Counted from the stretch's first letter, positions 25,267 through 55,889 are shown. The stretch is DNA of 64,000 nt from Ilumatobacteraceae bacterium (GCA_041685755.1 JAWLFC010000003.1:26-64025), one strand, 5' to 3'. Translations and numbers: made by a program. The notes: a model not told the origin generated them from the sequence alone.

Positions 25267-27606
25267 TCAGGCGAGCCGGGCGCGGGTCAGGCGGGGAATG
25301 GCGATGATGACGGCCCCGGCAACGGCGACGGCGGCAGCCGAGAACCACCACGCCGAGTTCCAGAACAGCTCCAGTTCGAAGAAGTCCCGGAGGAACGGCA
25401 CCACCATCACCACGGCGTAGCCGAGACCCATGCCGATCACCAGCCCCAGCTTCCACGACTGCAACGGCCGGCTGGTGACGGCGAGCACCACGAGGCCGAT
25501 CGCCAACAGCGTCAGCGTGGCCAAGCTGCGAGCCTGGTCGAGGGGCAGGTCGCTGAAGTAGCGGGCGGACTCGTACGCGGCGAGCGTGGCGGCGCCGGCG
25601 ACGACGCCGGCCGGAACCGAGAACCACAGCACACGGCGCAGGAAGCCCGGGCGGACGAGGTGGACCTCGGGGGCGAGCGCCAGGAAGAAGCCGGGGATCC
25701 CGATGCTGAAGGTGCCGATCAGGGTCAGATGGCGCGGCAGGAACGGGAACGGTTCACCCAACAGACCCACCGCGAGCGTCAGGAGCACGGCGTAGGCGGC
25801 CTTGGTGACGAACAGGTTCGACACCCGCTCGACGTTGTTGATCACCTTGCGGCCCTCGTTCACGACGACGGGCAGACTGGAGAAGGCGTCGTCGGTCAGT
25901 ACCAGGTCGGCGACGGCCTTGGTGGCCTCGCTCCCCGACCCCATCGAGATCCCGAGGTCGGCGTCCTTCAGGGCGAGGACGTCATTGACGCCGTCGCCGG
26001 TCATCGCGACCACGTGGCCCCGGGCCTGCAGTGCGCGCACCATCGCCTGCTTCTGCTGCGGCTTGACCCGGCCGAAGACGGTGTGGCCGTCGAGCACCCT
26101 GCCGAGTTCGGCAATGTCCTCCGGAAGCTCGCGAGCGTCGATGGCGTCGCCGACGACGTCCAGCCCGGCCCGTTCGGCGATGGCCGCCACCGTCTCGGGG
26201 TTGTCGCCCGAGATCACCTTGAGCGTCACGTCCTGTTCCGCGAAGTAGGCGAGGATCTCCGGTGCGTCCGGGCGGATCTCGTCCTCCAACTCGACGACGG
26301 CGAGCGTGCGGGCATCGGTCGGGAGGCGCCCGTCGTCGTGGGCGTGCGCCGACACCACCACGGCCAGCAACCGCTTGCCCGCTCCGCTCAGCTGCTCGAC
26401 GAGACTCCGGGCCGGGTCGTCGACGCCGAGGAGGAAGTCCGGTGCGCCGATGTAGAACCAGCCCTGGTCGACGAACGCCGCCGCCGACCACTTGCGTTCG
26501 CTGTCGAAGGGCTCGACGTGCTCCACCGACCACGAGGTGGCGGTGCCGACCTCGGCGGCGATCGCCGCCATCGTGGCGTTCGGGGCCCGATCGGCAGCGG
26601 CGAGCGCGACGAGCGCCGCGTGTGCCTCGGCGTGATCGACCCCGGCGGCCGGGTGGAGCTGGCCGAAGCGGATGTCTCCGGTCGTGATCGTGCCCGTCTT
26701 GTCGAGGCACAGCACGTCGACGCGGGCGAGCACCTCGACCGTCGAGAGCTGCTTGGCCAACGCATTGCGACGGGCGAGGGCGATGACCCCGGCCATGAAC
26801 GCGAGGCTCGTCAACAACACGAGTCCGTCGGGCACCATCGCCACCGCGGCGGCGACGGTGCCGATCAGCGCGTCCTGCCAGCGGTCCTCGGCGTCGAGCA
26901 GGTTGACGAACAGGAAGATCGACGCCACGGGGATGATCACGGTGAGCCACCGCAGGATCAGGTCGATGCCGCGGCGCAGGTTCGACTCGGCAGCGTTGAA
27001 GCGCTTGGCCTCCAGCGCCAGTTGGCTGGCGTAGCTGTCGGCGCCGACGGCGGTCGCCGCCAGCGAGCCGTTGCCCGCGACGACGAAACTTCCGGAGAGC
27101 ACCTCGTCGCCGATGTCCTTGTGGACCGGCAGCGACTCGCCGGTCAGCATCGACTCGTCGAGGCGCAGACCGGTCGACTCCAGCACCATCCCGTCGACGG
27201 CGACCTGGCCGCCGAGGCGCAGCACGACGACGTCGTCGAGCACGATCGAGTCGGAGTCGATCTCGACCTGCTCGCCGTCGCGCACCACCGTGGCCAGCGG
27301 CTCGGTGACCACCTCGAGACGCCGGAGTTCGCGTCGGGCCCGGACCTCTTGCACGACGCCGATCACCGAGTTGGACAGCACCACCCCCACGAACAGGCCG
27401 TCCTGGGGGCTGCCGGCGACGAGCACGAGCACGAACAGCGTGAGCATGATCGCGTTGACGATCGTGAACACGTTCGCCGCCACGATCTGGCCGAGCGACC
27501 GATCGGGCGGGTCGGGGACGATGTTCACCTGGCCGGCGGCGACCCGCTCGGCGACCTCGGCCTCGGAGAGCCCGCGTGTGGGGGCGGCGACACGGGCGGC
27601 GTCCAT
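25267..27606 (-). CDS. cation-transporting P-type ATPase (HAD-IC, type II-like)
   Basis: Motifs CLDKTGTITTG (phosphorylation site), TGES, MVPDGLVLL and MTGDGVNDVLALKDADLGISMG. Start set to ATG 27606. ATG 27666 is possible, but it would overlap the divergent gene's start. Confidence 0.85.
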   Translation of the reverse strand: MDAARVAAPTRGLSEAEVAERVAAGQVNIVPDPPDRSLGQIVAANVFTIVNAIMLTLFVLVLVAGSPQDGLFVGVVLSNSVIGVVQEVRARRELRRLEVVTEPLATVVRDGEQVEIDSDSIVLDDVVVLRLGGQVAVDGMVLESTGLRLDESMLTGESLPVHKDIGDEVLSGSFVVAGNGSLAATAVGADSYASQLALEAKRFNAAESNLRRGIDLILRWLTVIIPVASIFLFVNLLDAEDRWQDALIGTVAAAVAMVPDGLVLLTSLAFMAGVIALARRNALAKQLSTVEVLARVDVLCLDKTGTITTGDIRFGQLHPAAGVDHAEAHAALVALAAADRAPNATMAAIAAEVGTATSWSVEHVEPFDSERKWSAAAFVDQGWFYIGAPDFLLGVDDPARSLVEQLSGAGKRLLAVVVSAHAHDDGRLPTDARTLAVVELEDEIRPDAPEILAYFAEQDVTLKVISGDNPETVAAIAERAGLDVVGDAIDARELPEDIAELGRVLDGHTVFGRVKPQQKQAMVRALQARGHVVAMTGDGVNDVLALKDADLGISMGSGSEATKAVADLVLTDDAFSSLPVVVNEGRKVINNVERVSNLFVTKAAYAVLLTLAVGLLGEPFPFLPRHLTLIGTFSIGIPGFFLALAPEVHLVRPGFLRRVLWFSVPAGVVAGAATLAAYESARYFSDLPLDQARSLATLTLLAIGLVVLAVTSRPLQSWKLGLVIGMGLGYAVVMVVPFLRDFFELELFWNSAWWFSAAAVAVAGAVIIAIPRLTRARLA

Positions 27607-27664
27607 CTCTGCCGCAGAGTACTCAGCTCCGGCAGGCTGCGCCCGGAGCTGGTTCACTGGTGTC

Positions 27665-29365
27665 ATGACATCTGCCGACGAGGCGCTCATCGGATACGTC
27701 CGGGACTCGGTCATCGGCCGCGACGACGTGCTCGACGGCCCGTACGGTCCCCGGCCGATCATCTACGCCGACTACACCGCGTCGGGTCGCTCGCTGTCGT
27801 TCATCGAGGACTACATCCGCAACGTCGTCCTCCCGCTCTACGCCAACACCCACACCGAGTCGTCCGGCACGGGCCTGCAGACCACGCGGCTTCGCGAAGA
27901 GGCCCGCAGCATCATCGCCCGTTGCGTCGGGGCGACACCCGACGAGCACGCCGTGGTGTTCTGCGGCAGCGGCGCCACCCACGCCATCGCCAAGCTGATC
28001 GGCGTCCTCGGCCTCAAGATCCCCTCGGCCCTCGACGACCGGTACCGGTTCGGCGACTCGATCCCCGCCGCCGAACGCCCGGTGGTCTTCATCGGCCCGT
28101 ACGAGCACCACTCCAACGAGCTCCCGTGGCGCGAGTCGATCGCCGACGTGGTGATCATCGACGAGGACGCCGACGGCCACGTCAGCCTCGACCACCTCGA
28201 ACGCGAGCTCGTCCGCCATGGCGACCGATCGATGCTGATCGGCTCGTTCTCGGCCGCCTCGAACGTGACCGGCATCATCACCGACACCGTGGCCGTCTCG
28301 ACGCTGTTGCACGAACACGGCGCGCTGTCGCTGTGGGACCACGCCGCCGCCGCGCCGTACGTGCCGATCGACATGGGGTCGAGCGCCGACGGCAACCTCG
28401 CGTACAAGGACGCGGTGTTCATCTCGCCGCACAAGCTGATCGGTGGGCCCGGGACACCGGGCGTGCTCGTGGCCCGCAGGGAGTTGTTCGCCAACCGGGT
28501 GCCCGACGTCCCCGGGGGTGGGACGGTGCGCTACGTGAGCACCAGCGAGCACGACTACCACCCCGAGATCGAACACCGGGAGGAGGCGGGGACGCCGGCG
28601 ATCATCGAGTCGATCCGGGCCGGGCTCGTGTTCCAGCTGAAGGAGGCGGTGGGCCCCGACGTGATCGAGGCGCGCGAGTCGGCCTTCGTGCGCCGGGCGA
28701 TCGAGTCGTGGGAGGCGAACCCGAGCATCGACGTCCTCGGTAGTCACGAGGCCGAGCGGCTGTCGATCGTGTCGTTCGTCATCCGCCACGGCGAGCGTCA
28801 CCTGCACCACAACTTCGTCGTCGCCGTGCTCAACGACGTGTTCGGCATCCAGTCCCGCGGCGGCTGTTCGTGCGCCGGCCCGTACGGGCACCGCCTCCTC
28901 GGGATCGACCTCGACCGCTCCCACGAGTTCCAGCGCGAGATCACCCGCGGCTGCGAAGGCATCAAGCCGGGGTGGGTGCGGGTGAACTTCAACTACTTCA
29001 TCGACGACGCGACGTTCGACTACATCGTCGATGCCGTGCACCTGGTCGCCTCGCACGGCGCCGCACTGCTCGACGAGTACGACTTCGAGCCCGACAGCGG
29101 CCTGTGGCACCACCGGCGGGGCACCAGGGGCCCGGCGATGAGCTTGGAGGAGATCTCCTACGCCGGCGGGTCGATGAGCTTCGTCGATCGACGACACCAG
29201 GAGACGATCGACCTCGACCGTCACCTCGCCGCCGCCCACGAGCTGTTCCACGCTGCACGCGGCCGGGTGTCGTCACCGACACCGCACCCGATCACCAACC
29301 CCGACTTCGAGCACCTCCGCTGGTTCCCCTACGCCGACGAGCTCTCCGGCGCCCGTTCCCGATGA
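27665..29365 (+). CDS. class V-fold PLP-dependent enzyme (cysteine desulfurase-like) with C-terminal extension
   Basis: Last 566 aa of ORF 27071..29365. Motifs YADYTASGRSL, NVTGII and FISPHKLIGGPGTPGVLV (PLP Lys). Confidence 0.8.
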   Translation: MTSADEALIGYVRDSVIGRDDVLDGPYGPRPIIYADYTASGRSLSFIEDYIRNVVLPLYANTHTESSGTGLQTTRLREEARSIIARCVGATPDEHAVVFCGSGATHAIAKLIGVLGLKIPSALDDRYRFGDSIPAAERPVVFIGPYEHHSNELPWRESIADVVIIDEDADGHVSLDHLERELVRHGDRSMLIGSFSAASNVTGIITDTVAVSTLLHEHGALSLWDHAAAAPYVPIDMGSSADGNLAYKDAVFISPHKLIGGPGTPGVLVARRELFANRVPDVPGGGTVRYVSTSEHDYHPEIEHREEAGTPAIIESIRAGLVFQLKEAVGPDVIEARESAFVRRAIESWEANPSIDVLGSHEAERLSIVSFVIRHGERHLHHNFVVAVLNDVFGIQSRGGCSCAGPYGHRLLGIDLDRSHEFQREITRGCEGIKPGWVRVNFNYFIDDATFDYIVDAVHLVASHGAALLDEYDFEPDSGLWHHRRGTRGPAMSLEEISYAGGSMSFVDRRHQETIDLDRHLAAAHELFHAARGRVSSPTPHPITNPDFEHLRWFPYADELSGARSR

Positions 29366-29369
29366 TCCG

Positions 29370-30848
29370 CTAACCGAGCAGGGCGGCGACGACCGGCTCG
29401 AGGATCTGCTCCACGATGACCACGTTCCCGACACCGAGGGCCAGCACCGCCACGGCCAACGCCACGACCGGGATCACGACGGCCGTCGCCGGTTCACCGA
29501 CCTGTTCGGCGGCCTCGGCATCGACCGGCGGGCGGAACCACACCAGCTCCAACACCCGCAGGAAGTAGAGCAGGGTGAGCACGCTGGCGCCGACGACGAC
29601 GAGGCCGATCACCCACCGGTCGGCCTCCACCGCACCCGAGACCAGGTACCACTTCGAGACGAAGCCGGCCGTCGGCGGCAGGCCGACCATCGAGATCGCC
29701 GCCACCGTGAATGCCGCCATCGTGATCGGCATGCGCTGTCCGAGACCGGCGTAGCCGGCGATCTTCTTGGTGCGCGCCTGCTCGAGCACACCGCCCGCCA
29801 CGAAGAACATGCACGCCTTCATCGCGGCATGGTTCACCACGTGCAGCAGCGCACCGATCAACGCCATCCGGGTGCCGAGCCCGATCCCGACCGCGATGTA
29901 GCCGAGCTGTGCCACCGTCGAGTGGGCGAGCATCCGCTTGACGTCGTCCTGGCGGATCGCCATCACCGACCCCACGACGATGCCCGCCGCACCGAACCAC
30001 GTCAGCATCGTCATCACGGGCAACTGGTCGGTGACGTAGCCGGTCGGGAACACGTCGAGCAGGATCCGGATCAGCGCATACGCCGCCACCTTCACCTGGA
30101 CGGCGGCGAGGAGTGCAGCCACCGCCGGCGGCGCGTGGCTGTGCGCGTCCGGAAGCCACACGTGCAACGGGAAGATCGCCATCTTCGTGCCCAGGCCGAT
30201 GACGATCAAGGCCACGGCGGCGGCCGTGGTGGGCGAGTCGGTGAGCTGCTCCAGCGCCGGGCCGACGGAGTCCATGCCGAGCGACCCGGTCGTGAAGTAC
30301 ACGAAGCCCACACCGAGCAGGTAGAGGCTGCTGCCCATGGTGCCGATCAGGAGGTAGCGATAGCTCGCAACGGCCGCGGCAGGACCCCCGAGCGCGATCA
30401 GTGCGTACGACGCGATCGAATAGATCTCGAGGCTGACGAACAGGTTGAACAGGTCGCCCGTGACCGCCACACCGAACAGCGCACCGAGCAGCAGGAGCAC
30501 CAGGGGGTAGACGACGACACCGCGCTCGGGCTCGACACCGAAGCCGGTGACGGTCGGGTAGACGACGACGAGCAACCCGATGACGCCGATGAGGACGGCA
30601 ACGAAACCCGAGAGCGGGTCGAGCACGTACTCGATGCCGAGCGGCTGGGCCCAGCCACCCATCGCGTGGCGGAGCTCGCCGTGGTCCAGCACCCGCAGCA
30701 GACCCCACGACGCCAGCACCGTCGCGAGGGCCATCGTCGCCGCGGCGACCCACTGCGCAGCCCGAGGCCGGAACAGGGCCGCGACGGTGGCCACGACCGC
30801 CCCGGTGAAGGGCACCATCGGCAACAGCGCCGGGATCGCGGAGTTCAT
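29370..30848 (-). CDS. MrpD/NuoN-like antiporter subunit (third D-like gene of non-canonical cluster)
   Basis: 492-aa polytopic ORF. Motifs LFNLFVSLEIYSIASYALI, HVWLPDAHSHAP and VNHAAMKACMFF. 4-nt overlap with the upstream gene. Confidence 0.85.
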   Translation of the reverse strand: MNSAIPALLPMVPFTGAVVATVAALFRPRAAQWVAAATMALATVLASWGLLRVLDHGELRHAMGGWAQPLGIEYVLDPLSGFVAVLIGVIGLLVVVYPTVTGFGVEPERGVVVYPLVLLLLGALFGVAVTGDLFNLFVSLEIYSIASYALIALGGPAAAVASYRYLLIGTMGSSLYLLGVGFVYFTTGSLGMDSVGPALEQLTDSPTTAAAVALIVIGLGTKMAIFPLHVWLPDAHSHAPPAVAALLAAVQVKVAAYALIRILLDVFPTGYVTDQLPVMTMLTWFGAAGIVVGSVMAIRQDDVKRMLAHSTVAQLGYIAVGIGLGTRMALIGALLHVVNHAAMKACMFFVAGGVLEQARTKKIAGYAGLGQRMPITMAAFTVAAISMVGLPPTAGFVSKWYLVSGAVEADRWVIGLVVVGASVLTLLYFLRVLELVWFRPPVDAEAAEQVGEPATAVVIPVVALAVAVLALGVGNVVIVEQILEPVVAALLG

Positions 30849-31258
30849 GCGCCGGCTCCTCCGCTCGCGCCGTCTCCTCCGCTGGCGCCGTCTTCGGCGT
30901 CACGCAGCGAGAGGGCCGCATCGTCGAGCGTGCCGAACGCCCGGCGGATCACCACGATGAGCGCGAGCGCCACGCCGATCACCGCCACGCCGACGACCAA
31001 CGCGGTGAGGATGAGCAGGTGCGGCAACGGGTTGACGTAGGCATCCGGATCGGGGCCGACCGCCGGGTCGATGACGGGGACGTCGCCGTCGACGCGCACG
31101 CTGCCCTCGATGAAGAACAGGAACACCGCCGTCTGGAACAGGACGAGACCGACGAGCTTCTTGACCAGGTGCCGCTCGGTCAGCATGGCGAACAGCCCGA
31201 GCGAGAGCAGTCCGACGACGAACAGGTAGACGTAGCGATCGGCGATGAGCTCGAACAT
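30845..31258 (-). CDS. MrpC/NuoK-like subunit
   Basis: Last 137 aa of ORF 30845..31861: MFELIADRYVYLFVVGLLSLGLFAMLTERHLVKKLVGLVLFQTAVFLFFI. Gly/Asp-rich tail. Start shares 1 nt with the upstream stop. Confidence 0.8.
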   Translation of the reverse strand: MFELIADRYVYLFVVGLLSLGLFAMLTERHLVKKLVGLVLFQTAVFLFFIEGSVRVDGDVPVIDPAVGPDPDAYVNPLPHLLILTALVVGVAVIGVALALIVVIRRAFGTLDDAALSLRDAEDGASGGDGASGGAGA

Positions 31259-31695
31259 CAGCGCCTCACCTGGGCCGACAGCCGGTCGAAGATCGACAGG
31301 ATCCCTCCGAACACCACGGCGCCGACGCCGAACTCGACGATCATGATGCCGAGGTATCGACGCCGCGAGTCCGTCGCAGAACCGACGTCGACCGCCGCGT
31401 AGTCGAGCAGTTGCCCACCGAACAGCATCGGCACCAACGCCGACAGCAGGAACACCGACATCCCCACGACGAGCGCCAGGGTCCCGACGATCGGCGGGAA
31501 CACCCGATCGACCAGCTTCGGGTCGATCGTCAAGCGCGCGAGCACCACCCCGACGGCGAGCACGACCCCGCCGGCGAAGCCACCGCCGGGCCCGTAGTGA
31601 CCGTGCGCGATGACGTAGACGCCGAACACACCGATGAACGGCATGGTGAGGGCCGCGACGACCCGCACGTTCTCGCTCGGGTGCCGGCCGATCAC
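31258..31695 (-). CDS. MrpB-like subunit
   Basis: Last 145 aa of ORF 31258..32295. MnhB-type motif HGHYGPGGGFAGGVVLA. GTG 31695 overlaps the upstream stop. Confidence 0.8.
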   Translation of the reverse strand: MIGRHPSENVRVVAALTMPFIGVFGVYVIAHGHYGPGGGFAGGVVLAVGVVLARLTIDPKLVDRVFPPIVGTLALVVGMSVFLLSALVPMLFGGQLLDYAAVDVGSATDSRRRYLGIMIVEFGVGAVVFGGILSIFDRLSAQVRR

Positions 31696-32222
31696 GACGT
31701 CGACCTCCGGCGGAGCACCAGCGTCGCGGCGAGGGCCGCGGTGAACACGACGAGCGTCTCGCCGAGCGTGTCGAGCGACCGGTAGTCGGCGAGGACCGCC
31801 GTGACGACGTTCGGTGTCTCGCTGTCGGTGATCGACCGCTCGAGGAACTCGCGGGCCACACCCTGATGGGCGGGCGCGTCCGGATCTCCGCGATCGGGCA
31901 GATCGACGCTCGCCACGAGCAGGAGCCCGGCGAACAGCAGGGTGCACGGCCCGGCGATCCAGACCGCGCGACGATCCCGGCCCGCCGGACGGTCGCCGGT
32001 GGCGAAGACGGCGACGAGCAGGAGCACGCCGACGAACGCCGAGCCGAGCACCGCCTCGACGAACGCGACGTCGGGCGCGCCCATCCCGGCGAACAACAGG
32101 GCGACGAACAGGCTGAAGGCGGCGAGCACGGCGACGGTGGCGATCATCGACCGCACCCAGACCGCCACGACGGCACAGGCCATCAGCAGCGTGAGCAGCA
32201 ACAGATCCAGCTGCCAGGTCAT
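31692..32222 (-). CDS. MrpA C-terminal-region-like (DUF4040-type) membrane subunit
   Basis: 176 aa. PNVVTAVLADYRSLDTLGETLVVF parallels NVVNVILTDTRALDTLGEVIVLL at the C-terminus of the canonical MrpA in this window. Confidence 0.75.
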   Translation of the reverse strand: MTWQLDLLLLTLLMACAVVAVWVRSMIATVAVLAAFSLFVALLFAGMGAPDVAFVEAVLGSAFVGVLLLVAVFATGDRPAGRDRRAVWIAGPCTLLFAGLLLVASVDLPDRGDPDAPAHQGVAREFLERSITDSETPNVVTAVLADYRSLDTLGETLVVFTAALAATLVLRRRSTS

Positions 32223-32563
32223 CGGTGATCCTCGGCATCATCGCTGTGCAGCTCGCCGTTCGAGTCCGCTGCATCCTCGTCGACCCCGCCGCCACCGCGC
32301 AGCGCGCTGCGCGCCAACGCGTGGATCGCCGTCGGATTGACCAGCAACGAGAACGCCGCGATCAGCACGAGCTGCAGGCTCCCCGGCCCGAAGCGGTTCA
32401 GGACGACGAGACCCATGAACACGAGCACGAGGCCGAGTGTCTCGGCCTTGGCCACGGCATGGGCGCGCGTCCAGAAGTCGGGAAACCGGATCAGGCCGAG
32501 CGCGCTGATCATCAGGAATGCGGTCCCTGCGATGAGGAGCGCCGCCGCGATGACGTCGGTCAC
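32219..32563 (-). CDS. MrpG-like subunit
   Basis: Last 114 aa of ORF 32219..33166: LGLIRFPDFWTRAHAVAKAETLG. GTGA overlap. Confidence 0.8.
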   Translation of the reverse strand: MTDVIAAALLIAGTAFLMISALGLIRFPDFWTRAHAVAKAETLGLVLVFMGLVVLNRFGPGSLQLVLIAAFSLLVNPTAIHALARSALRGGGGVDEDAADSNGELHSDDAEDHR

Positions 32564-32826
32564 GGCGACTTCCTCGACTCGAGGTAGCGGGCGAACGCGA
32601 GCGGGAACAGGAAGGCCAGCAGCGCGTACGACAACCCGATGTCGACGAACAGTTCGGGCCGACCGAAGATGAAGCCGATCAGCATCAGCAGCACGACGCT
32701 CGACACCGCCCCGAACGAGCTCGACAGGAGTCGATCGATCACGGTCGGGCCGCGGGCGACACCGATCACCGCGGTGATGGTCAGACCTCCGACCACGAAC
32801 GCGAGCACGAGCAGCAGACCGGTCAC
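32560..32826 (-). CDS. MrpF-like subunit
   Basis: Last 88 aa of ORF 32560..33858. Three TMs and ARGPTVIDRLLS. GTGA overlap. Confidence 0.75.
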   Translation of the reverse strand: MTGLLLVLAFVVGGLTITAVIGVARGPTVIDRLLSSSFGAVSSVVLLMLIGFIFGRPELFVDIGLSYALLAFLFPLAFARYLESRKSP

Positions 32827-33383
32827 GACAGTTCTCCCCGGTTGACGAGATCGAGGTCGAGCGGCGGCTGCGGGCCCTCGAGGAAGATCCCGGCGATCTT
32901 GTTCTGGAGTCGACCGGACACGAGGTCCTGCACCTGCGCCGGCGACAACGCGTGGACGAGGATGTCCTGGCCCTCGATGTCGACGGTGAGCGTGCCCGGC
33001 ACGAGCGAGATCGAGTTGGCGAGTGTGGCGCGTGCCAGCGGGCTGCGCAGCTCGGTACGGAAGCGGACAGAGCACGGATCCAGCGGCATCGTCGGCGACA
33101 GCACGATCCGCGCCAGCTGGACGCTGGCGACGAGGATCCGGCCGGCCATCCACACCACGAACGCACCGGCCCGCACGACCGCCACCGGGATGCGCCGGAT
33201 CGCGACGTGGTCGCGGTCGGGCCGCAGACACACCCCGACGATGCGCGAGGTGAGCGCGGTGACGACGAGGGCGGCGATGGCCCCGGTCACCAGGAACAGC
33301 GGCTCGGTCCGGCCGGACAACGCGAACCAGAACGCGAACAGCGACACCGCCTGGACGATCGTGGTCCGTCGGACGTGCCCCAT
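32823..33383 (-). CDS. MrpE-like subunit
   Basis: Last 186 aa of ORF 32823..33584: VSLFAFWFALSGRTEPLFLVTG...GTLTVDIEG. ATG shares 1 nt with the upstream stop. Confidence 0.75.
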   Translation of the reverse strand: MGHVRRTTIVQAVSLFAFWFALSGRTEPLFLVTGAIAALVVTALTSRIVGVCLRPDRDHVAIRRIPVAVVRAGAFVVWMAGRILVASVQLARIVLSPTMPLDPCSVRFRTELRSPLARATLANSISLVPGTLTVDIEGQDILVHALSPAQVQDLVSGRLQNKIAGIFLEGPQPPLDLDLVNRGELS

Positions 33384-35056
33384 CACCGCACCACCACCGT
33401 GAGAGCCAGGACGAACACCATGGCGCCGGCGATGGTGCCGCCGAGCACCCAGCCCGGCGCCACCGTCCCGCCGAGCCCCGGCAACGCTCCCCGCCGCCAC
33501 GCGGCCGGCACCGTCGGCAATGCCGGGCGAGGCAGCGACGCCACGACCGCGCCGACGCGCGGACCGAGACGCGGACCGAGCCACACGGGGAGCTCGCGGT
33601 AGACGACATCGGTGTCGAGGCTGGTGGTCGCCTTCGGCGTGAGTCGTGCCCGTAGCACGACGAACGCGATCGCCGTGACACCGAGCAGGACGGTCGACTC
33701 GACGAGCTTGCCGGCGGTGTAGGGAACGAAGGGCTCGGGTGCCGGCAACAGGTCGAACAGCAGCGACGGGCGCAGTCCGATCGCGATGTTGGCGATCGCG
33801 GCGACGCCCATCGCCACGTACATCGTCGCCGGGATCCGCTGGACGGACACCGGCTCACGGGCAGGACCGAACCACGTGAACGCCGGAAGCTTGAGCGCGA
33901 CGCTCAGGAAGGTGCCCACCGAGGCGAGCTTCAGCAGCCACTGGGCCACGGACTCACCACCGGCGCCGATCGACGACACGGCGAGCTCCTTGGCGGGGAA
34001 CCCGCTGAACCCGGCCAGCCCCGAGATCGAGAGCGCGCCGACCATGTACAACACGAGGACGATCGGCAGCGCCCCGCGCAGACCACCCAGCTGCGAGGTA
34101 CGGCTGCGACCCGTCGCGTACACCACCGCACCGGCACCCATGAGCAGTAGCCCCTTGTACAGCACGTGCGCCGTCGCGTGGGCGGTCGCGCCGTTGACCG
34201 CGGCGGCCGTGCCGACGCCGATCGCCGCGACCATGAACCCGACCTGGCTGACGATGTGATAGCTGAGCAGACGACGGATGTCGTCTTCGAGGATGGCGAA
34301 CACGACGCCGAACAGCGCCATGACGACGCCGATCCAGATCAGCAGGTCGAGACCGGGGAACCCGCGCGCCAACGCGTAGACCGCCGACTTGGTGGTGAAC
34401 GCGCTGAGCAGGACGGTGGCCGCGACCGTCGCCGTGGGGTACGTGTCCGGGAGCCAGGCGTGCAACGGCACCGCCGCCGCCGACACGAGGAAACCCGTCA
34501 GGACGAGCGATGTCGGTCCGGTGAGCTCGAGTCCCTCGAACTGCAACGAACCCGTCGAGACGTGGTGCCACATCACCCCACCGAGCAGCACGACGCCGCC
34601 GACGAGGTGGACCGGCAGGTACCTCGTCGCCGCCGCACTCGACACGGCGCGGCGACGGGCGAGCACGAGCAGGACCACCGTGGTGACCTTCAGCTCCCAG
34701 AAGAAGAACAGCGTGAGGAGATCACCGGCGAGGACGACGCCGATGGCCGCTCCCGCGGTGGCCAGGCCGGCGACGCGCTCGAGCGTGCCCATGGTCGACC
34801 AGCCGAACACCGCGCCGAGCAGCATGATCGAGGCGAAGACGAGGGCGAAGGGTCGCGCCAGCCCGTCGAAACGCATGGTGGTGAGTTCGATGCCGTAGAA
34901 GTCGTAGGTCGCCGTCGCGCCGAGTGGCAGGCCAACCGTGACGAGCAGCGCGAGGGCGGCAACGGCCACCGTCGTGACGGCCCCGAACCGGCGGGGCACC
35001 ATCGCGACGACCAGGGCACCGACCAGCAGCACGAACGCCGGACTGAACTCAGGCAT
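33383..35056 (-). CDS. MrpD/MrpA-like antiporter subunit with ~100-aa C-terminal extension
   Basis: Last 557 aa of ORF 33383..35179. Motifs FFFWELKV, HAWLPDTYP, TTKSAVYAL and HVLYKGLLLMG. The extension ends in a TM helix (GTIAGAMVFVLALTVVV). Confidence 0.85.
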   Translation of the reverse strand: MPEFSPAFVLLVGALVVAMVPRRFGAVTTVAVAALALLVTVGLPLGATATYDFYGIELTTMRFDGLARPFALVFASIMLLGAVFGWSTMGTLERVAGLATAGAAIGVVLAGDLLTLFFFWELKVTTVVLLVLARRRAVSSAAATRYLPVHLVGGVVLLGGVMWHHVSTGSLQFEGLELTGPTSLVLTGFLVSAAAVPLHAWLPDTYPTATVAATVLLSAFTTKSAVYALARGFPGLDLLIWIGVVMALFGVVFAILEDDIRRLLSYHIVSQVGFMVAAIGVGTAAAVNGATAHATAHVLYKGLLLMGAGAVVYATGRSRTSQLGGLRGALPIVLVLYMVGALSISGLAGFSGFPAKELAVSSIGAGGESVAQWLLKLASVGTFLSVALKLPAFTWFGPAREPVSVQRIPATMYVAMGVAAIANIAIGLRPSLLFDLLPAPEPFVPYTAGKLVESTVLLGVTAIAFVVLRARLTPKATTSLDTDVVYRELPVWLGPRLGPRVGAVVASLPRPALPTVPAAWRRGALPGLGGTVAPGWVLGGTIAGAMVFVLALTVVVR

Positions 35057-35243
35057 CGTCGACCTCCCCGGTCCGGGCGTCCGCGGGCGCATCGACGAGG
35101 TCGTCCCGCGGGTCACCGAGTTCACCGGCGCGGGTTCCGGCGGGACGGGACACGACGGCCGACCCGAGCCACTTGGCACCGATCACGAGCACGACCGACG
35201 CGGCCATCGCGAAGACCCCGATGATCACGGCGTCGACGATCAT
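35049..35243 (-). CDS. 64-aa single-TM protein embedded in Mrp-like cluster
   Basis: Last 64 aa of ORF 35049..36383: MIVDAVIIGVFAMAASVVLVIGAKWLG plus an acidic tail. ATGA overlap with the upstream D-like gene and 8-nt overlap with the downstream one. Confidence 0.55.
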   Translation of the reverse strand: MIVDAVIIGVFAMAASVVLVIGAKWLGSAVVSRPAGTRAGELGDPRDDLVDAPADARTGEVDDA

Positions 35244-36727
35244 GGCGTCACCCCGACGACGGCCCGAGCCACCGCGTTCGTGAGCTGACCGATCGCGACG
35301 ACGTCGCCGAGGCCGAGCACCACGCCGAGTACCGCAGTCGTCACGATCGGCACGAGCATCGCGGGGACGGCGTCGGTGCGCACGGTGGTGGGGCCGGCGA
35401 AGGCGTCCGAGCTCCGGAAGAACGCCCGGTGCACGATCGGCAACAGGTATCCGGCGGTGAGCAGACCGCTGCCGATCACGATCACGGCGAGCACCGGCTG
35501 GTCGGCCTCGATCGTTCCCGAACCGAGGAACCACTTGCTGACGAACCCCCCGACCGGCGGCAGCCCGGCCAGGCCCAGCGCCGCGACCCCGAACGCTGCC
35601 ATCGTGACGGGCATCCTCCGGCCGATGCCGTCCAACTGCGACACCCGGTCGACGCCGGTGGTGACGTAGATCGCCCCGGCGGCGAAGAACAGGGTGATCT
35701 TCAGTACGGCATGGTTCGCGAGGTGCAGCAGCGCCCCGTTCCACGCCGAGGCCGACAGCAGTGAGACACCGAGCACGATGTAGGAGAGATGGGCGATGGT
35801 GGAGTAGGCCAGCCGACGCTTCAGCTGGTCCTGCCGGAACGCCATGACCGACGCGGTCACGATGGTGGCCCCCGCCAGCACGGCCACCACGAGACCGATG
35901 CCGATGTCGGCCATTCGCTCGGGACCGATCACGTAGCCGAACATCCGGACGAAGCCGAACACCCCGGCCTTGACGACCGCGACCGCGTGCAGCAGCGCGC
36001 TGACCGGCGTCGGGGCGACCATGGCGGTGGGAAGCCATCCGTGCAGTGGCATGACGGCCGCCTTCGTCCCGAAGCCGAAGAACGCCAGCACGACCAGGGC
36101 GATCACCATCGTGTCGCTCACCGCCCCCGTGGCGGCGTCGCCGAGCACGCCACCGGCGGTGAAGGTCGCCGTCGGCACGGTGTACTGCACGATCGCGACC
36201 GCCAGCAGCAACGCCGTCCCGCCACCGAGCAGCGTCAGCAGGTATCGCTTGCCGGCGGCGAACGCGGCGGGCGTCTGCTTGTGCACCACGAGCGGGTAGG
36301 TGGCGAGCGTCAGCAACTCGTAGAACACGAAGAACGTGAACAGGTTCCCGGCGAACGCCAGACCCATCGTGGTCGACACGCACAGGGCGAAGGTCGCGAA
36401 GAAGCGGGTGAGGTGTTGCTCACCGGCTCCGGCCACGTACCCGAACGAGTACGAGGAAGCCAGGATCCAGAGGGCGGCCGCCGAGAGGGCGAAGACCATG
36501 CCGGCGGCATCCACCCGCAACAGGAGTTCGACGCCCGGCGCCAACTCGCCGAGTCGACGGGTGGGCTCGTGCCCGTCGAGCACCTGCGGCAGCATCGCGA
36601 CCACCAGCGCGAACGTCGTGAGCGCCGCCACCGCCGTCCACAGCACGCGCAGGCGGTGCCGATCGCCCGAGAGGGCGATGGCGACAGCGCCGACGAGCGG
36701 CGTGAGGACGGCAAGGACAGCAAGCAT
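35240..36727 (-). CDS. MrpD/NuoM-like antiporter subunit (first gene of non-canonical cluster)
   Basis: 495-aa polytopic ORF. Motifs NLFTFFVFYELLTLATYPLV, HGWLPTAMVAPTP and ANHAVLKITLFF. Confidence 0.85.
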   Translation of the reverse strand: MLAVLAVLTPLVGAVAIALSGDRHRLRVLWTAVAALTTFALVVAMLPQVLDGHEPTRRLGELAPGVELLLRVDAAGMVFALSAAALWILASSYSFGYVAGAGEQHLTRFFATFALCVSTTMGLAFAGNLFTFFVFYELLTLATYPLVVHKQTPAAFAAGKRYLLTLLGGGTALLLAVAIVQYTVPTATFTAGGVLGDAATGAVSDTMVIALVVLAFFGFGTKAAVMPLHGWLPTAMVAPTPVSALLHAVAVVKAGVFGFVRMFGYVIGPERMADIGIGLVVAVLAGATIVTASVMAFRQDQLKRRLAYSTIAHLSYIVLGVSLLSASAWNGALLHLANHAVLKITLFFAAGAIYVTTGVDRVSQLDGIGRRMPVTMAAFGVAALGLAGLPPVGGFVSKWFLGSGTIEADQPVLAVIVIGSGLLTAGYLLPIVHRAFFRSSDAFAGPTTVRTDAVPAMLVPIVTTAVLGVVLGLGDVVAIGQLTNAVARAVVGVTP

Positions 36728-37118
36728 GGACGATCAGGGCTTCGGGTGGATCACGGCAACGGCAGGTCCGACCATCGGGGCAGACGAGCAGGAATCCCAC
36801 GGAATCGCATCGCGGCGACCGGACGGGTCGCGCCGGCGATGTCGAAATCAGCGCAGCAGCAGGCGGGCGAGCGGCGGCCCGGCGTTGCACACCGGACCGC
36901 GCGTCCCGGGGTGAAGGCACCCGAGCAGCAGCGACCGACGCAACATGCAGTGCACCTTACGGATACTTCCGGTCGGACCAAACCCGAATCGGATCAGGGT
37001 TCACACCCCGTTCATGCAGGAGCTTCGCCGCCACCGTCGACGAGAGGGCCACCGCGCTCACGATCGGTCCGTCACCCGATCGACACACAACCGTCATGTT
37101 GCGATAGCTTGAGCGGCC

Positions 37119-38396
37119 ATGCCTGCGACCGAGCGAGAACCCCACCGACAGCGCCGCGTCGCCGCCGTTCTCGCTGTCATCGTTCTGGGCCTCCTCGGGC
37201 CGGTCGTGGTTCCCGCTGGAGTCGGCGCCCAGGATCCTGCAGCCGAGCAGGCCGCACGCGAAATCCAGGAGGCGCGCGACCGCGCCAACGCCGCCGCGCA
37301 GGCGATGTTCGACGCCGAGTCGCAGCTCGACACGCTCGACCTGGAGATCGTCGAGGCCGAGCGACAGCTGGCTGCGGTCGAGGCCGAGGCGGCCGCGATG
37401 CAGACGAGCCTGCAGGCCGACGCCCAGCGCAGCTTCGTCAACTCGGGCACCAACATCCCGCTCCTGATCGACCTCGACGACGCCAACGCCGACATCACGG
37501 CGAGCCGACTGGCCTCGGTCGCTCGCGGCGCCGCAGCGGTCGAACTCGACGACTACGACGCGGTGATGAAGGAGGTCCGCTCCCAGCGCGCCGACCTCGA
37601 ACGCCGCAAGGAGGCCACGGCCGAGGCCCGCGAGCAGTACGAGCAGCTCAAGGCGGCCGCCGAGGCCGAGGTCGTGAAGCTGACCGAGATCGAGGAGCAG
37701 CGCCTGCGCGACGTCGCCGTGCAGCGCGAACTCGAACGCCAACGCAAGCTCCGTGCCGAGCAGGAGGCCGCCGAGGCGGCAGCCGCCGCCGCGGCCGCAC
37801 AGCAGACGCAATCACGAGCGCAGTCGAGCCGCGTGGCCGCACCCGCACCGAGCGGCGCGGCCAGTGCCGGATCGAGCGGCGGGTCGAATGACAGCTCGAA
37901 CGGCGGGTCGAACGGCGGCTCGAACGGCAGCTCGAACACTCGCCCGCAGGCCGCAGCACCGCCACCGGCGCCCACGCCGGCTCCCCCACCGCCACCGCCG
38001 GCGAACGCCGGGAGCGGAATCGTGTGCCCCGTCGCCGGTCCCCATGCCTTCGCCGACACGTGGGGCGCACCCCGCTCGGGCGGCCGCCGCCACGAGGGCG
38101 TCGACATGATGGCCGCTCGCGGCGTTCCGCTCGTCGCCGTCGAGTCCGGCTACGCCCAGTTCAAGACCACCCGCCTCGGCGGCAACTCGGTCTGGGTCAA
38201 CGGCAACAGTGGCACCCGCTACTTCTACGCCCACCTCAGCGCCTGGGAGGGCTCGAGCCGCAACGTGTCACGCGGTGAGGTGATCGGCTACGTCGGCGCC
38301 ACCGGCAACACGAGCGCCAACCACCTCCACTTCGAAGTGCACCCCGGCGGCGGTCGCGCCGTCAATCCCTACCCCTACGTCCGCGCCGTCTGCTGA
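37119..38396 (+). CDS. secreted M23 (LytM-type) metallopeptidase with N-terminal coiled-coil region
   Basis: Signal/TM VAAVLAVIVLGLLGPVVV. Ala/Glu/Gln-rich heptad-like region. Motifs HEGVDMMA and GATGNTSANHLHFEVH (HxxxD and HxH). Confidence 0.85.
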   Translation: MPATEREPHRQRRVAAVLAVIVLGLLGPVVVPAGVGAQDPAAEQAAREIQEARDRANAAAQAMFDAESQLDTLDLEIVEAERQLAAVEAEAAAMQTSLQADAQRSFVNSGTNIPLLIDLDDANADITASRLASVARGAAAVELDDYDAVMKEVRSQRADLERRKEATAEAREQYEQLKAAAEAEVVKLTEIEEQRLRDVAVQRELERQRKLRAEQEAAEAAAAAAAAQQTQSRAQSSRVAAPAPSGAASAGSSGGSNDSSNGGSNGGSNGSSNTRPQAAAPPPAPTPAPPPPPPANAGSGIVCPVAGPHAFADTWGAPRSGGRRHEGVDMMAARGVPLVAVESGYAQFKTTRLGGNSVWVNGNSGTRYFYAHLSAWEGSSRNVSRGEVIGYVGATGNTSANHLHFEVHPGGGRAVNPYPYVRAVC

Positions 38397-38471: not shown

Positions 38472-39512
38472 TCAGCGGGTGCGGGTCCGCGAGAGCGGGA
38501 CGGTGCCGCGCATGACACGACTGGTGTAGGTCGCGATGTTGCCGATGTAGTTGGCCCGCTCGTAGGCCGCCGGGTCAGCGGCGCCGCGGCTCGAGACCGC
38601 TCCACGCATCTGCTCCACCGAGTCGTACTCGTGCTCGGTCATCCAGTCGACGAGTTGCGCCTCGATCGTCGCGACGTGGCTCGCGCCCTCACGGAGCAGC
38701 GACGAGGTCGCCATCGCCACATCGGCGCCGGCCAGGATCACCTTCGCAGCATCGAAGCCCGAGTGGACGCCGCTCGACGCGGCGATCGACATCGACAGGT
38801 GCTCGCGCAGGATGCCGATCCAACGCAGCGGAAGGCGGACCTCCTCGGGCGTGCTCAGCGCGATGCGCGGCTCCACGTCGAGCGTCTCGAGGTCGAGATC
38901 GGGCGAGTAGAACCGGTTGAACATCACCACGCCGTCGGCACCGGCACGTTGGACGGCGACCACGAAGTTGGCCAGCGAGGAGTAGTACGGCGAGATCTTG
39001 ACCGCGACCGGCACGTCGACCTCCTCGGCGACGAGCGCCACGAGCTCGAGGTGCTCACCCTCGAGCGATGCGCCGTCGACGGCGGGATCGGCGGCGACGG
39101 TGTAGAGGTTCAACTCGAGTGCGTCGGCGCCGGCGCCTTCGAGCAGCCGGGCGTACTTGACCCAGCCGCCGATGTTGGCCCCGTTGAGACTGGCGATCAC
39201 CGGCACGTCGATCGCCACCTTGGCGTTCTCGATCAGCTCGAGATACGAGTCGATGGCCGAGCCGTAGTCGTCGATCTCGGGGAAGAACGACGTCGCCTCG
39301 TTGAAGCTGTCGTCGTGCACGGTGAACAGCCGGTCGATCTCGGCGGTCTCGTGCTCGATCTGCTCTTCGAAGATCGACGGCAACACGACCGCTCCGACGC
39401 CGGCGAGGTCGAGCTCGGTGAGCCGGTCGAGATCACCCGTGAACGGCCCTGCCGACGCCACGATCGGCGACCGCAGCGACAGTCCGAGATAGGTGGTGTG
39501 CAGGTCAGGCAT
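38472..39512 (-). CDS. dihydroorotate dehydrogenase-like (PyrD-fold) protein, PFOR-associated
   Basis: 346-aa TIM-barrel flavoprotein-like ORF (LGLSLRSPIVASAGPFTG, GAGADALELNLY). 8-nt overlap with the nifJ 3' end. Confidence 0.8.
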   Translation of the reverse strand: MPDLHTTYLGLSLRSPIVASAGPFTGDLDRLTELDLAGVGAVVLPSIFEEQIEHETAEIDRLFTVHDDSFNEATSFFPEIDDYGSAIDSYLELIENAKVAIDVPVIASLNGANIGGWVKYARLLEGAGADALELNLYTVAADPAVDGASLEGEHLELVALVAEEVDVPVAVKISPYYSSLANFVVAVQRAGADGVVMFNRFYSPDLDLETLDVEPRIALSTPEEVRLPLRWIGILREHLSMSIAASSGVHSGFDAAKVILAGADVAMATSSLLREGASHVATIEAQLVDWMTEHEYDSVEQMRGAVSSRGAADPAAYERANYIGNIATYTSRVMRGTVPLSRTRTR

Positions 39513-42500
39513 CGTCGTCCTCCGACTCGGGCTCGCCGTCGATCATGTCCAGGTCGACGGCGTGGGGCTCGCGGAGCGTGCGCTCCACACCGGCGAGTTG
39601 TTCGTAGTAGCGCCAGCGCTCGTCGATCTCCTCCTGGGCGAGATCGAGCAGCATCGCCGAGCGCTCGGGGTCCGACCGCGCCAACATCGAGTAGCGGGCC
39701 TCCTTCAGCGCGAACTCGCGCAACGGGATGCTCGGTGCCGCCGAGTCGAGGTGGAACGGCTGCTCGTGCTCCTCGACGGTCGGCTGATAGCGGTACAGCG
39801 GCCAGTAGCCGGACTTCACCGCCTCCTTCATGTGCGACATCGAGGTCTCCATGTCGATGCCGTGGGCGATGCACGTCGAGTAGGCGATGACGAGCGACGG
39901 TCCGTCCCAGGCGTCGGCCTCGGCGAGCGCCTTGACGGTCTGGATGTCGCTGCCGCCGATGGCGACCTGAGCGACGTAGACGTTGCCGTAGCGTCGGGCG
40001 ATCGCCCCGAGGTCCTTCTTCCCGGTCGGTTTGCCGGCCATCGCGAACTTGGCGACAGCTCCGAGCGGCGTCGCCTTCGACGCCTGGCCACCGGTGTTGG
40101 AGTACACCTCGGTGTCGAGCACCAGCAGGTTGACGTTGCGGCCGCTGCCGAGCACGTGATCGACGCCACCGAAGCCGATGTCGTACGCCCAGCCGTCGCC
40201 GCCGACGATCCAGGTACTCGTACGCACCAGCTCGTCGGCGATCGACGCGAGCCGTCGAGCCGACTCGGCCACGACGGGATCGGCGTCCTCGACCAGGTCG
40301 GCGAGACGTTCGCGCAGCACGCCGACGCGGGCACGCTGCTCGATGACAGCCGCCTCGGTCGGCGCCGGGTCGGCGAGCAGGGCGTCGGTGAGTTCGGCGC
40401 CGACACCGTCGCGCAGGTCGGCGAGCAGACGGCGCGCTTCGCGCTGGTGGTGCTCGATACCGAGGCGCATGCCGAAGCCGAACTCGGCGTTGTCCTCGAA
40501 CAACGAGTTCGACCACGCCGGGCCGAGACCGTTGGTGTCGGTCGCCCACGGCGTGGTGGGCAGATTGCCGCCGTAGATGGACGAACAGCCCGTGGCGTTG
40601 GCGACCACGAGGCGGTCGCCGAACAGCTGGGTGAGGAGCTTGAGGTACGGCGTCTCACCGCAGCCCGAACAGGCACCGGAGAACTCGAACAGCGGTTGCA
40701 GCAGCTGGGAGTTCTTGACCGAGCCGTGGGTGATCGACGCCCGATCGATCTCGGGGATCTCGGTGAAGAAGTCCCAGCGTTCGCGCTCGACCTCGCGGTG
40801 CTCGTCGGCGGGCGCCATGTTGATCGCCTTACGACTCACCTGGGTCTTGTCCTTGGCCGGACACACGTCGACGCAGATGCCGCAGCCGGTGCAGTCGTCG
40901 GGGGCGACCTGGATCGTCAGCTGGTGGCCGTCGAGTTCCCGTGAGCGGAAGTTCTTCGTGAGGAAGCCGTCCGGGGCGCCGTCGAGAGCGGCGGGTTCGT
41001 AGGCCTTCATGCGGATCGTGGCGTGCGGGCACACGACGGCGCACTTGCCGCAGTCGATGCACAGGTCGGGCTCCCACACCGGGATCGAAAGCGCCAGCTT
41101 GCGCTTCTCGAACCGGGTGGTGCCGGTCGGAAAGCTGCCGTCGATCGGCATCGCCGACACCGGCAGCAGGTCGCCCTCACCGGCGATCATCCGCATCGTC
41201 ACCTTCTCGACGAAGTCGTCGGTGGCGGCCTCGCGCACCGAGTCGAGCACGTCGAGCGTCTCGTCGATCGGGGTCTCGTCGCCCACCGTCGCCGGCACCG
41301 TCACCTCGGCCAGTTCGGTCAGCGCACGATCGACCGCGGCCTCGTTGCGTTCGACGACGAGGCGACCGCGGCGGCCGTAGGCCTTCTCGATCGACTCCTT
41401 GATCGCGCCGACCGCCCGGTCGAGCTCCATCACCTCGGACAGCGCGAAGAAGCACGGCTGCATGATCGTGTTGATGCGCCCCGGCATCTTCAGCTCGCGG
41501 GCGATGCGGGTCGCGTCGATCGTGACGACGCGCAACTCGCGCTCGACGATGCGACGCTGGATCTTGCGTGGCAGGTGTTCCCACAACTCGTCGGCGGTGT
41601 AGGGGGCGTTGAGCAGGAACGTGCCACCGTGGCGGATGTCGGCGAGCACGTCGAAGCGGTCGAGCAGGCCGAACTGGTGGCAGGCGACGAGGTCGGCCTC
41701 CTGGACCAGATAGGTCGAGCGGATGGGTTCGGGCCCGAAGCGCAGGTGCGAGACGGTCATCGAGCCGGACTTCTTGGAGTCGTACACGAAGTAGCCCTGG
41801 GCGAAGAGGTCGGGTTCGTCGCCGATGATCTTCACCGACGCCTTGTTGGCACCGACGGTGCCGTCGGACCCGAGGGCGTAGAACACCGCCGAGCGTCCCG
41901 ACCGCTCGACGTGGAAGCCGTCGTCGACGTCGAGGCTGAGGCCGCCGACGTCGTCGACGATGCCGACGGTGAAGCGCCGCTTCGGGTCGTCACGGCCGGC
42001 TTCGTCGAACACCGCCTTGGCCATCGCCGGGGTGAACTCCTTCGAGCCGAGGCCGTAGCGGCCACCGATCACCCTCACCTTCGGCCGGTCCGATTCGGCG
42101 AGGGCGGTGACGACGTCCTGGAACAGCGGCTCGCCGGCGGCGCCGGGCTCCTTCGTCCGATCGAGAACGGCGATGTGGCGGACGGTGTCGGGCAGGGCAG
42201 CGAGCAGCGCGTCGGTCGGGAACGGCCGGAACAGCCGGATCGTCGCGAGGCCGACCTTCTCGCCGTCGGCGACGAGTTTCGCCACGGTCTCGCCGACAGC
42301 ACCGGCGCCCGAGCCCATCATGACGATGACCCGTTCGGCGTCCGGCGCCCCCTCGTAGTCGACGAGACCGTAGCGACGGCCGGTCAGCTCGGCGAGCTCG
42401 GCGAAGACCTGCTCGACGGCGGCCGGCACGGCGGCGTGGAAGGGGTTGGCGGCTTCGCGCGCCTGGAAGAACACGTCGGGGTTCTGGGCTGTTCCCCGCA

Positions 42501-43143: not shown

Positions 43144-43271
43144 GTGATCCATCCTTGCGCTCGCAATCCCCGCTGACGACCGCCCAAAGTCCCCAATCGC
43201 AGCGTCGACCGGCAGGATGGGGCGGTGACGTCGCGTTCCGCAGCTCTCGGCCTCGTCGCGGGAGCCCGACG

Positions 43272-46391: not shown

Positions 46392-46408
46392 CCACTGGAG
46401 CGATCGAC

Positions 46409-55885: not shown

Positions 55886-55889
55886 GGCC

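Follow-up and report, generated by a model that had tools for sequence, protein, structure and literature searches.

A ten-gene Group 3 Mrp-type cluster with a divided MrpA and three antiporter-like subunits in an Ilumatobacteraceae genome

What is encoded by a second set of Mrp-like genes that has no full-length mrpA, has three large antiporter-like subunits, and shares its surroundings with a canonical mrpABCDEFG operon? The question is raised by a stretch of 64,000 nucleotides (hereafter the window) from the metagenome-assembled genome (MAG) of an Ilumatobacteraceae bacterium (GCA_041685755.1, JAWLFC010000003.1:26-64025; 70% G+C); the proteins nearest to those of the contig carry Ilumatobacteraceae/Acidimicrobiales labels. 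In the window, ten minus-strand genes occupy positions 29370 to 36727, and a canonical Group 1 operon lies at 52761-58678. An earlier note, made from the sequence alone, had described the ten genes as a non-canonical membrane module. Our results suggest that they encode one stand-alone Group 3 Mrp-type monovalent cation/proton antiporter driven by the proton-motive force (pmf), a reading to which we give a probability of roughly 0.7.

The gene model was obtained by frame analysis of third-position GC (GC3) together with start-codon mapping. In support of it, the same ten genes are present in an independent public gene call of the contig (JAWLDN010000003.1 of GCA_041686635.1), and with Pfam these data confirmed the gene lengths, the order and the overlaps of 1-8 nucleotides (nt) that the earlier note had given. 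The order along the minus strand is D1-x-D2L-E-F-G-Ac-B-C-D3. It begins with the antiporter-like D1 (35240..36727; 495 aa; PF00361, E=3.5e-54), the small membrane protein x (35049..35243; 64 aa) and the antiporter-like D2L (33383..35056; 557 aa; PF00361). These are followed by homologues of MrpE (32823..33386; 187 aa, or 186 aa if the ATG at 33383 is used as start; PF01899 MNHE, E=1.7e-30), MrpF (32560..32826; 88 aa; PF04066 MrpF_PhaF, E=1.3e-9) and MrpG (32219..32563; 114 aa; PF03334 PhaG_MnhG_YufB, E=1.6e-21). Next comes Ac (31692..32222; 176 aa; PF13244 MbhD and PF20501 MbhE), then the MbhF-like MrpB homologue (31258..31695; 145 aa; PF04039 MnhB, E=4.3e-22), the NuoK-like MrpC homologue (30845..31258; 137 aa; PF00420 Oxidored_q2, E=1.2e-17) and the antiporter-like D3 (29370..30848; 492 aa; PF00361, E=4.3e-66). 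Thus, the assignment of families to each open reading frame (ORF), a check that the earlier note had proposed, placed nine proteins in Mrp families and left the 64-aa ORF without a Pfam match. All these matches are above the gathering score. Mrp-subunit models were also found throughout the cluster with NCBIfam, the MrpG homologue scoring above the TIGR01300 cutoff. The nine junctions between the genes all overlap, by 1, 4 or 8 nt, and are translationally coupled. Because of this coupling, and because terminator-like matches inside the operon were not above chance, the ten genes form a single transcription unit. Note that the scans for intrinsic terminators and sigma-70 promoters over the operon, which gave nothing above chance, are uninformative for a high-GC actinobacterium.

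Is this a new kind of machine? The cluster encodes together MrpB, C, E, F and G (five Pfam families above their gathering thresholds), three PF00361 subunits, one of them with a predicted transmembrane helix (TM) 15, lateral helix and TM16, and the MbhD and MbhE domains. These are the gene features by which an Mrp (CPA3) system is recognised, two PF00361 subunits being the least required. No Mrp subunit is missing from the set, which has three antiporter-like cores and one lateral-helix-bearing subunit. As the earlier note had observed, there is no full-length MrpA of the sort that marks Groups 1 and 2 (about 770-960 aa, with MrpB fused to it in Group 2): the largest protein has 557 aa and matches PF00361 only, MbhD and MbhE being carried by the separate 176-aa protein. 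Group 3 has been defined by the absence of mrpA, by mrpD-like large subunits, sometimes several, and by an irregular gene order (PMC8415708, PMC5703873), and the cluster has three mrpD-like genes and no mrpA. Judged by its gene content, the cluster is a Group 3 Mrp, of a widespread kind, and the description of it as a non-canonical, unclassified system does not survive comparison with the published definition (PMC8415708). Three antiporter-like genes had been remarked before in Microbacterium sp. TS-1 (PMC5703873) and in Ca. Nitrospira alkalitolerans (PMC7784846); our literature search found no study on an Mrp with three MrpD-type subunits or on the small ORF. The claim that the system is distinct from the canonical operon held, since the subunits of the two are 30-40% identical.

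If there is no mrpA gene, where is MrpA? Pairwise identity among D1, D2L and D3 is 34-35%, and with the canonical MrpA and MrpD of the window it is 31-37%. A neighbour-joining tree with homologues of 20 loci places each of the three in an orthogroup of its own, and by their sequences these orthogroups appear to be ancient; where D2L branches from MrpA and MrpD at the base of this tree was unreliable and was not used. D3 carries the canonical TM5 Glu, TM7 Lys, TM8 Lys and TM12 Lys, and its best sequence matches in the PDB are MbhH (6cfw_H, 216 bits), MbsH (6u8y_H, 212 bits) and MrpD (7qru_D, 190 bits). D3 is the MrpD-proper subunit and fills the MrpD position. The channel residues of D1 are also all canonical (TM5 Glu, TM7 Lys, TM8 His and Lys, TM12 Lys). 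Its TM8, or helix VIII, reads SALLHAVAVVKAG and so contains the His described as specific to MrpA and NuoL (PMC4938563). D1 aligns with a score of 478 to the canonical MrpA and of 418 to the canonical MrpD. By sequence, its core is the most MrpA/NuoL-like of the three, and D1 has neither a PF00662 match nor a lateral helix.

The lateral helix is predicted in D2L instead. In the AlphaFold2 (AF2) model, built from a 72-sequence alignment (pLDDT 89), a 14-TM core is followed by TM15 (448-471), a 25-residue helix (483-507; pLDDT about 70-78) with a low-confidence Pro/Gly-rich linker after it, and TM16 (535-556). The top Foldseek matches of this model were the MrpA chains 9a6h_A, 6z16_A and 7qru_A (TMq 0.73-0.77), followed by NdhF and NuoL, and the earlier proposal that the C-terminal extension of this subunit could act as a lateral helix is thus supported by the modelled fold. 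The best sequence match of D2L among solved structures is MbsH', which in the MBS complex bears TM15, helix HL and TM16 (PMC7684303); with PRK12668 of NCBIfam it scores 559 bits, just under the cutoff of 564. Other marks of the MrpA/NuoL class are missing. Unlike the canonical MrpA of the window, D2L has no Proton_antipo_N (PF00662) match in Pfam. Its helix VIII reads FTTKSAVY and lacks the His-x-x-Thr-Met-Val motif of MrpA and NuoL (PMC4938563), and the TM7 Lys that should pair with TM5 Glu is replaced by Ser. This replacement is general: the position is Asn or Ser, never Lys, in 82/82 D2L orthologues, while the Lys is present in 33 of 33 orthologues of D1, 36 of 37 of D3 and 4 of 4 canonical MrpD proteins. 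As modelled, D2L corresponds in structure to TM1-16 of MrpA and to MbsH', with a core that has no TM7 Lys.

The remaining part of MrpA is found in Ac. Its counterpart in the canonical MrpA of the window (777 aa, with Proton_antipo_N, PF00361, MbhD and MbhE) is the segment 585-749, and Ac scores 143 bits with NF009159, against a cutoff of 141 (NCBIfam). Its sequence identifies Ac as the MrpA C-terminal domain (TM17-21) made as a protein of its own, a NuoJ-like fusion of MbhD and MbhE; a protein of this type is named "MrpB" in the Pyrococcus furiosus Mrp (PMC8415708). MrpA is thus present in the cluster, divided over D1, D2L and Ac, with one antiporter-like core in excess. With MrpA split over three genes and D3 added to them, there are therefore three antiporter-like subunits and not two.

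The small gene x lies between D1 and D2L, and so does a small ORF in 79/79 loci having both genes, where it fills 180-410 nt and usually overlaps both neighbours. The family is characterised by the motif PGF.A.YGF..C..II.VSK.LGH.WL.R.EDYYD, with an invariant Lys in the alignment, and by two predicted TM helices (AF2, pLDDT 80). Neither Pfam nor NCBIfam has a family for the 64-aa x or for four full-length relatives, and members named in public data are called "hypothetical protein" only. A profile search against 1.84 billion representatives recovered 2,460 clusters with E<=1e-3, of which 686 had E<=1e-10; among the matches listed at the top, all were small proteins. The x of the window retains only the second helix, with the lysine of GAKWLG, and has no TM1; the EDYY motif is replaced by the lineage-specific SRPAGTRxGELGDP and a variable acidic tail. 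A one-helix x is also present in locus L087 (9817-10008), from the same Ilumatobacteraceae lineage, while the sister Ilumatobacter MAGs (L004, L005) combine a two-helix x with the replacement motif. A longer x hidden upstream in the same frame was considered and rejected, as the upstream translation is an Arg-rich, off-frame version of D1. The earlier note was right that x is a membrane protein, but x is not an anonymous one: its sequence places it, in shortened form, in a two-helix family that is conserved but has no annotation.

How widespread is this arrangement? When each species was represented by one genome, at least 583 genomes had a D2L relative. The best 80 loci were fetched and their ORFs searched with the ten window proteins; as these loci were chosen for their similarity to an actinobacterial query, the counts of locus types are biased. 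Wherever the contig was long enough, D1 was immediately upstream of D2L. Type I loci, with the order of the window, numbered 10 and were all from Actinomycetota (Acidimicrobiia, Nitriliruptoraceae). The exact ten-gene order is also that of the cultured Rhabdothermincola salaria, and the set is intact in relatives at 65-97% identity. In the 31 Type II loci the order is E-F-G-Ac-B-C-D3-D1-x-D2L, a circular permutation of the Type I cycle; these come from Dehalococcoidia/SAR202 (Chloroflexota), Gammaproteobacteria (Spiribacter, Ectothiorhodospiraceae), Desulfobacterota, Bacillota and others. The survey of synteny that the earlier note had called for thus found the exact order recurring in Actinomycetota and permuted orders in other phyla. 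The published orders of Microbacterium TS-1 (mrpFGBCDDAE) and cyanobacteria (mrpCD1D2EFGAB) (PMC5703873), compared by gene order alone, fit the same cycle. Such cyclic permutations suggest either that the operon was duplicated in tandem and then lost different genes in different lineages, or that it was re-opened repeatedly.

A further 31 loci (Type III) have D1-x-D2L followed by two NuoM/NuoN-like genes, and were found in rhizobia, Photobacterium, Aromatoleum, Bryobacterales and others. In Sinorhizobium kostiense, for example, the order is nuoJ-nuoK-D1-x-D2L-nuoM-nuoN. The D1-x-D2L triads of Mrp-type and complex I-type loci are orthologous and have identical order, and D2L of the complex I type can be aligned with mycobacterial NuoL collinearly up to the C-terminus. 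The D2L tail measures 77 residues in the window, about 104 in complex I-type loci and 79-126 in Type II loci. Separately, four loci from MAGs of Desulfobacteraceae and other Deltaproteobacteria (L042, L058, L064 and L078) have two tandem D2L-type genes (D1-x-D2L-D2L), with C-terminal tails of 107-126 residues; these would have four antiporter-like subunits in an Mrp context.

How would such a complex work? By analogy with characterised relatives, monovalent cation/H+ exchange is predicted. According to the citation in PMC5703873, the cyanobacterial Group 3 cluster mrpCD1D2EFGAB complements a Na+-sensitive E. coli; the P. furiosus mrpEFGBB'CD affects pH homeostasis, with Na+ as the coupling ion (PMC8415708). 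From the structures of Mrp, MBS and complex I (PMC7684303, PMC8165549, PMC7419157), E, F, G and B would form the Na+-side module, and C and Ac a NuoK/NuoJ-like connecting module with a composite proton path beside D3. The lateral helix and TM16 of D2L would clamp the row of large subunits, and D1 would dock beside D2L, probably distally, helped by x. Given this collinearity of the complex I-type D2L with mycobacterial NuoL, the comparison suggests that D2L takes the NuoL position and that D1 was added distally. The D2L tail of the window is about 27 residues shorter than the complex I-type tail, roughly one subunit width if helical, which is only a hint; tail length was not relied on as a guide to subunit order, given the spread of the Type II tails.

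The canonical Mrp has three H+-translocating units and complex I four (PMC8165549), and by the same counting the complex of the window would have four. The extra channel would raise the number of H+ per Na+ (or K+) and make the exchange more electrogenic, so that it would work at high pH, high salt or low pmf, alongside the Group 1 Mrp. A higher H+/Na+ ratio is likely, and fits the frequent soda-lake and halophile sources of the close relatives, as read from the titles of a biased sample of records.

Several points count against a three-channel Na+/H+ antiporter of this sort. The ion specificity, direction and stoichiometry of a three-antiporter Mrp are drawn here by analogy. Judging from its sequence, the D2L core, with no TM7 Lys, may not be a working proton channel and may be regulatory or structural; in that case the extra-stoichiometry argument weakens. 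The modelled lateral helix, which may span more or fewer subunits, is short and of middling confidence. The position of D1 in the complex is only a proposal. Finally, x is truncated and weakly constrained in the window.

Could the cluster be a genuine Mrp-type exchanger with another job? It could catalyse K+/H+ or Ca2+/H+ antiport, or run in reverse, with Na+ entry driving H+ export. There are precedents in the Ca2+/H+ activity of Thermomicrobium roseum and in Sinorhizobium Pha1 (PMC5703873), as well as in the reverse operation of the P. furiosus Mrp (PMC8415708), and a specialised role is plausible in a window that already has a Group 1 Mrp, an exchanger of the CPA type with TrkA_C and a P-type ATPase. 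No particular ion is favoured by the sequence, though, and the enrichment in soda lakes and halophiles, for all the bias of the sampling, fits Na+/H+ exchange at high pH. We consider this alternative unlikely.

The surroundings of the cluster bear on the same issue. Further ion and energy genes of the window (25267-27762 (-), 43083-44738 (+), 44862-47416 (+)) include those of a P-type (E1-E2) ATPase, a Na_H_Exchanger + TrkA_C protein and the subunit I of a cytochrome bd oxidase, and the region, with its two mrp operons, looks rich in genes of ion homeostasis. A canonical mrpABCDEFG operon also adjoins the ten-gene cluster in several loci of Actinomycetota, of which some come from soda lakes (L084, L085, L005, L006, L004 and L009). 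It lies directly upstream on the same strand in L084 and L085 (L084 2359-15842), giving 17 mrp genes in tandem, and on the opposite strand in L009. This neighbourhood points to a role in ion homeostasis. Note also that in the window a MarR-family regulator gene (52381-52764, -) shares 4 nt with the canonical mrpG, at the stop of the latter, and appears to be an eighth gene of the canonical operon.

A different proposal is that the ten genes make the membrane arm of an ion pump driven by redox chemistry and related to MBS, MBH or complex I, with its peripheral module encoded elsewhere, such as a module taking the ferredoxin reduced by a nearby PFOR. Three observations speak for it. First, the D1-x-D2L triad sits inside rhizobial complex I operons, an arrangement described as "green complex I", with a pair of MrpD-like subunits in place of NuoL (PMC9040806). 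Second, the closest solved relatives of D2L and D3 are MbsH' and MbhH/MbsH. Third, genes for a PFOR (1266 aa; POR_N, PFOR_II, POR, EKR, Fer4) and a 346-aa DHO_dh-family protein, overlapping by 8 nt, are found at 38472-43305 (-), on the strand of the cluster; the pair begins 1.7 kb upstream of the cluster and PFOR itself 2.8 kb upstream, and the linkage is kept in the 89%-identical L087.

The operon and the surrounding 10 kb or so tell against this proposal: they contain no gene for NuoH/MbhM, NuoA, NuoB/C/D, a hydrogenase or a dehydrogenase, and the NuoH/MbhM anchor and NuoB/NuoD subunits found in the clusters of MBH, MBS and complex I are thus missing here. The earlier observation that no redox module is adjacent could be extended, as none was found in the flanks of the related Mrp-type loci examined (Actinomycetota, Dehalococcoidia, Spiribacter, Deltaproteobacteria), flanks that are unrelated to one another across several phyla. 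MrpE, F, G and B, all lacking from complex I, are retained, so that the likeness to a free-standing complex I-type arm drawn by the earlier note gives way to a complete Mrp, without NuoH or NuoA. As for PFOR, a divergent peptidase gene separates its operon from the cluster, and the linkage, which among the relatives checked was kept in L087 only, is absent from Rhabdothermincola, from soda-lake contigs and from the Type II loci checked from three phyla. PFOR was rejected as a dedicated partner because it belongs to a separate transcription unit and is linked to the cluster only in close relatives. A redox-driven arm is, in our judgement, very improbable, and the stand-alone antiporter is the reading that we retain.

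The limits of the operon are set by its neighbours, the divergent M23 peptidase gene (37119-38396) upstream and a convergent Aminotran_5 gene ending at 29365 downstream. Its promoter is presumably in the 391-bp region between D1 and the peptidase gene (36728..37118), assigned from position only. No match to the sigma-70 consensus was found there, and this consensus, the only one used in the promoter scan, is a poor model for an actinobacterium of such G+C. Rfam gave no match to an upstream RNA element or riboswitch (e.g. for Na+/Li+) in 36650-37200 at E<=1; in the whole window its matches above the gathering score were three tRNAs only (10937-11009, 12790-12878, 12916-13000). Against L087, the ratio of nonsynonymous to synonymous substitution rates (dN/dS) was 0.04-0.26 in nine of the ten genes (D1 0.12, D2L 0.20, E 0.14, F 0.04, Ac 0.07, D3 0.11) and 0.73 in x; purifying selection acts on the nine. 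That the cluster is a decaying or silent mrp paralogue, as the lost helix and high dN/dS of x and the missing promoter consensus might suggest, is hardly credible for ten intact ORFs with a GC3 of 0.85-0.93, nine of them constrained as above, that are kept whole in the relatives and in a cultured isolate, and for a promoter model so ill-suited to this genome.

What does the cluster mean more generally? The locus itself is no discovery: its gene content has been remarked in genome papers, NCBI annotates the subunits as Mrp, and the architecture is widespread and not a new kind of machine. Less expected, from the sequence comparisons, are the way in which D1 and D2L divide the MrpA/NuoL features between them, the TM7 Lys that all D2L proteins have lost, the small subunit, conserved but unannotated, and the reuse of the cassette in complex I. 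We tentatively propose, as a possibility that we would still bet against, that D1/x/D2L is a portable three-gene "split MrpA/NuoL" cassette that evolution plugged into both Mrp and complex I. If this were true, the ten-gene complex would be a stand-alone antiporter that matches complex I in its number of proton paths and has an altered H+/Na+ ratio, and x would be a true subunit, overlooked by annotation, with the task of docking the extra channel. The third antiporter-like subunit, the divided MrpA and the core without TM7 Lys make a natural variant for the question of H+/Na+ stoichiometry, and one that bears on the role of the lateral helix. The replacement of NuoL by D1-x-D2L in some complex I operons ties the antiporter to the evolution of the respiratory chain, and the cultured host R. 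salaria makes the cluster experimentally accessible.

How does the cluster compare with the known systems? It is close to the Group 3 Mrp of cyanobacteria and TS-1, a likeness that the earlier note had anticipated for the cyanobacterial cluster. As occurs here, these have no full-length mrpA, several mrpD-like genes and a small separate "A" gene equal to the MrpA C-terminal domain, and they are stand-alone, with no redox module (PMC5703873, PMC8415708, PMC4390856). Likened by gene order and not by sequence, all follow the cycle ...C-(D3)-D1-x-D2-E-F-G-A'-B-C..., opened at a different place in the cyanobacterial and TS-1 operons. The cyanobacterial examples, Aphanothece halophytica mrpCD1D2EFGAB and the Synechocystis mnh operon (slr2006-slr2013, with NdhD5/NdhD6), have two large subunits according to the literature, compared with three here.

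The E-F-G-[MbhD/E-like]-B-C-D order, which the earlier note had likened to the membrane arm of archaeal complexes, is indeed that of MBH, of the MBS membrane arm (MbsA-E, G, H, H'; PDB 6U8Y) and of the P. furiosus Mrp (mrpEFGBB'CD) (PMC8415708). D3 is most similar to MbhH and MbsH, and D2L to MbsH' (PMC7684303). The P. furiosus Mrp has one antiporter-like subunit, MBS two and the cluster of the window three. MBS differs in having the redox subunits MbsM/J/K/L/N, which the cluster lacks, and MbsH' keeps the TM7 Lys (K217, PMC7684303) where D2L has Ser or Asn. With the canonical Mrp complexes of Anoxybacillus flavithermus (6Z16), Bacillus pseudofirmus (7QRU) and Dietzia (7D3U) the cluster shares all Mrp modules, and it differs from Groups 1 and 2 in its split MrpA, its extra antiporter-like core and its extra small subunit. 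Finally, the rhizobial "green complex I" and the Complex_I_3 of Ca. Manganitrophaceae, where NuoL has given way to two MrpD-like subunits, have the orthologous triad in the same order. There it stands between nuoJ/nuoK and nuoM/nuoN (compare locus L053), and the NuoL-like HL/TM16 tail of its D2L is longer by about 27 residues, whereas the triad of the window is followed by mrpE-F-G, and not by nuoM-nuoN, and is joined to the whole MrpE/F/G/A'/B/C/D set.

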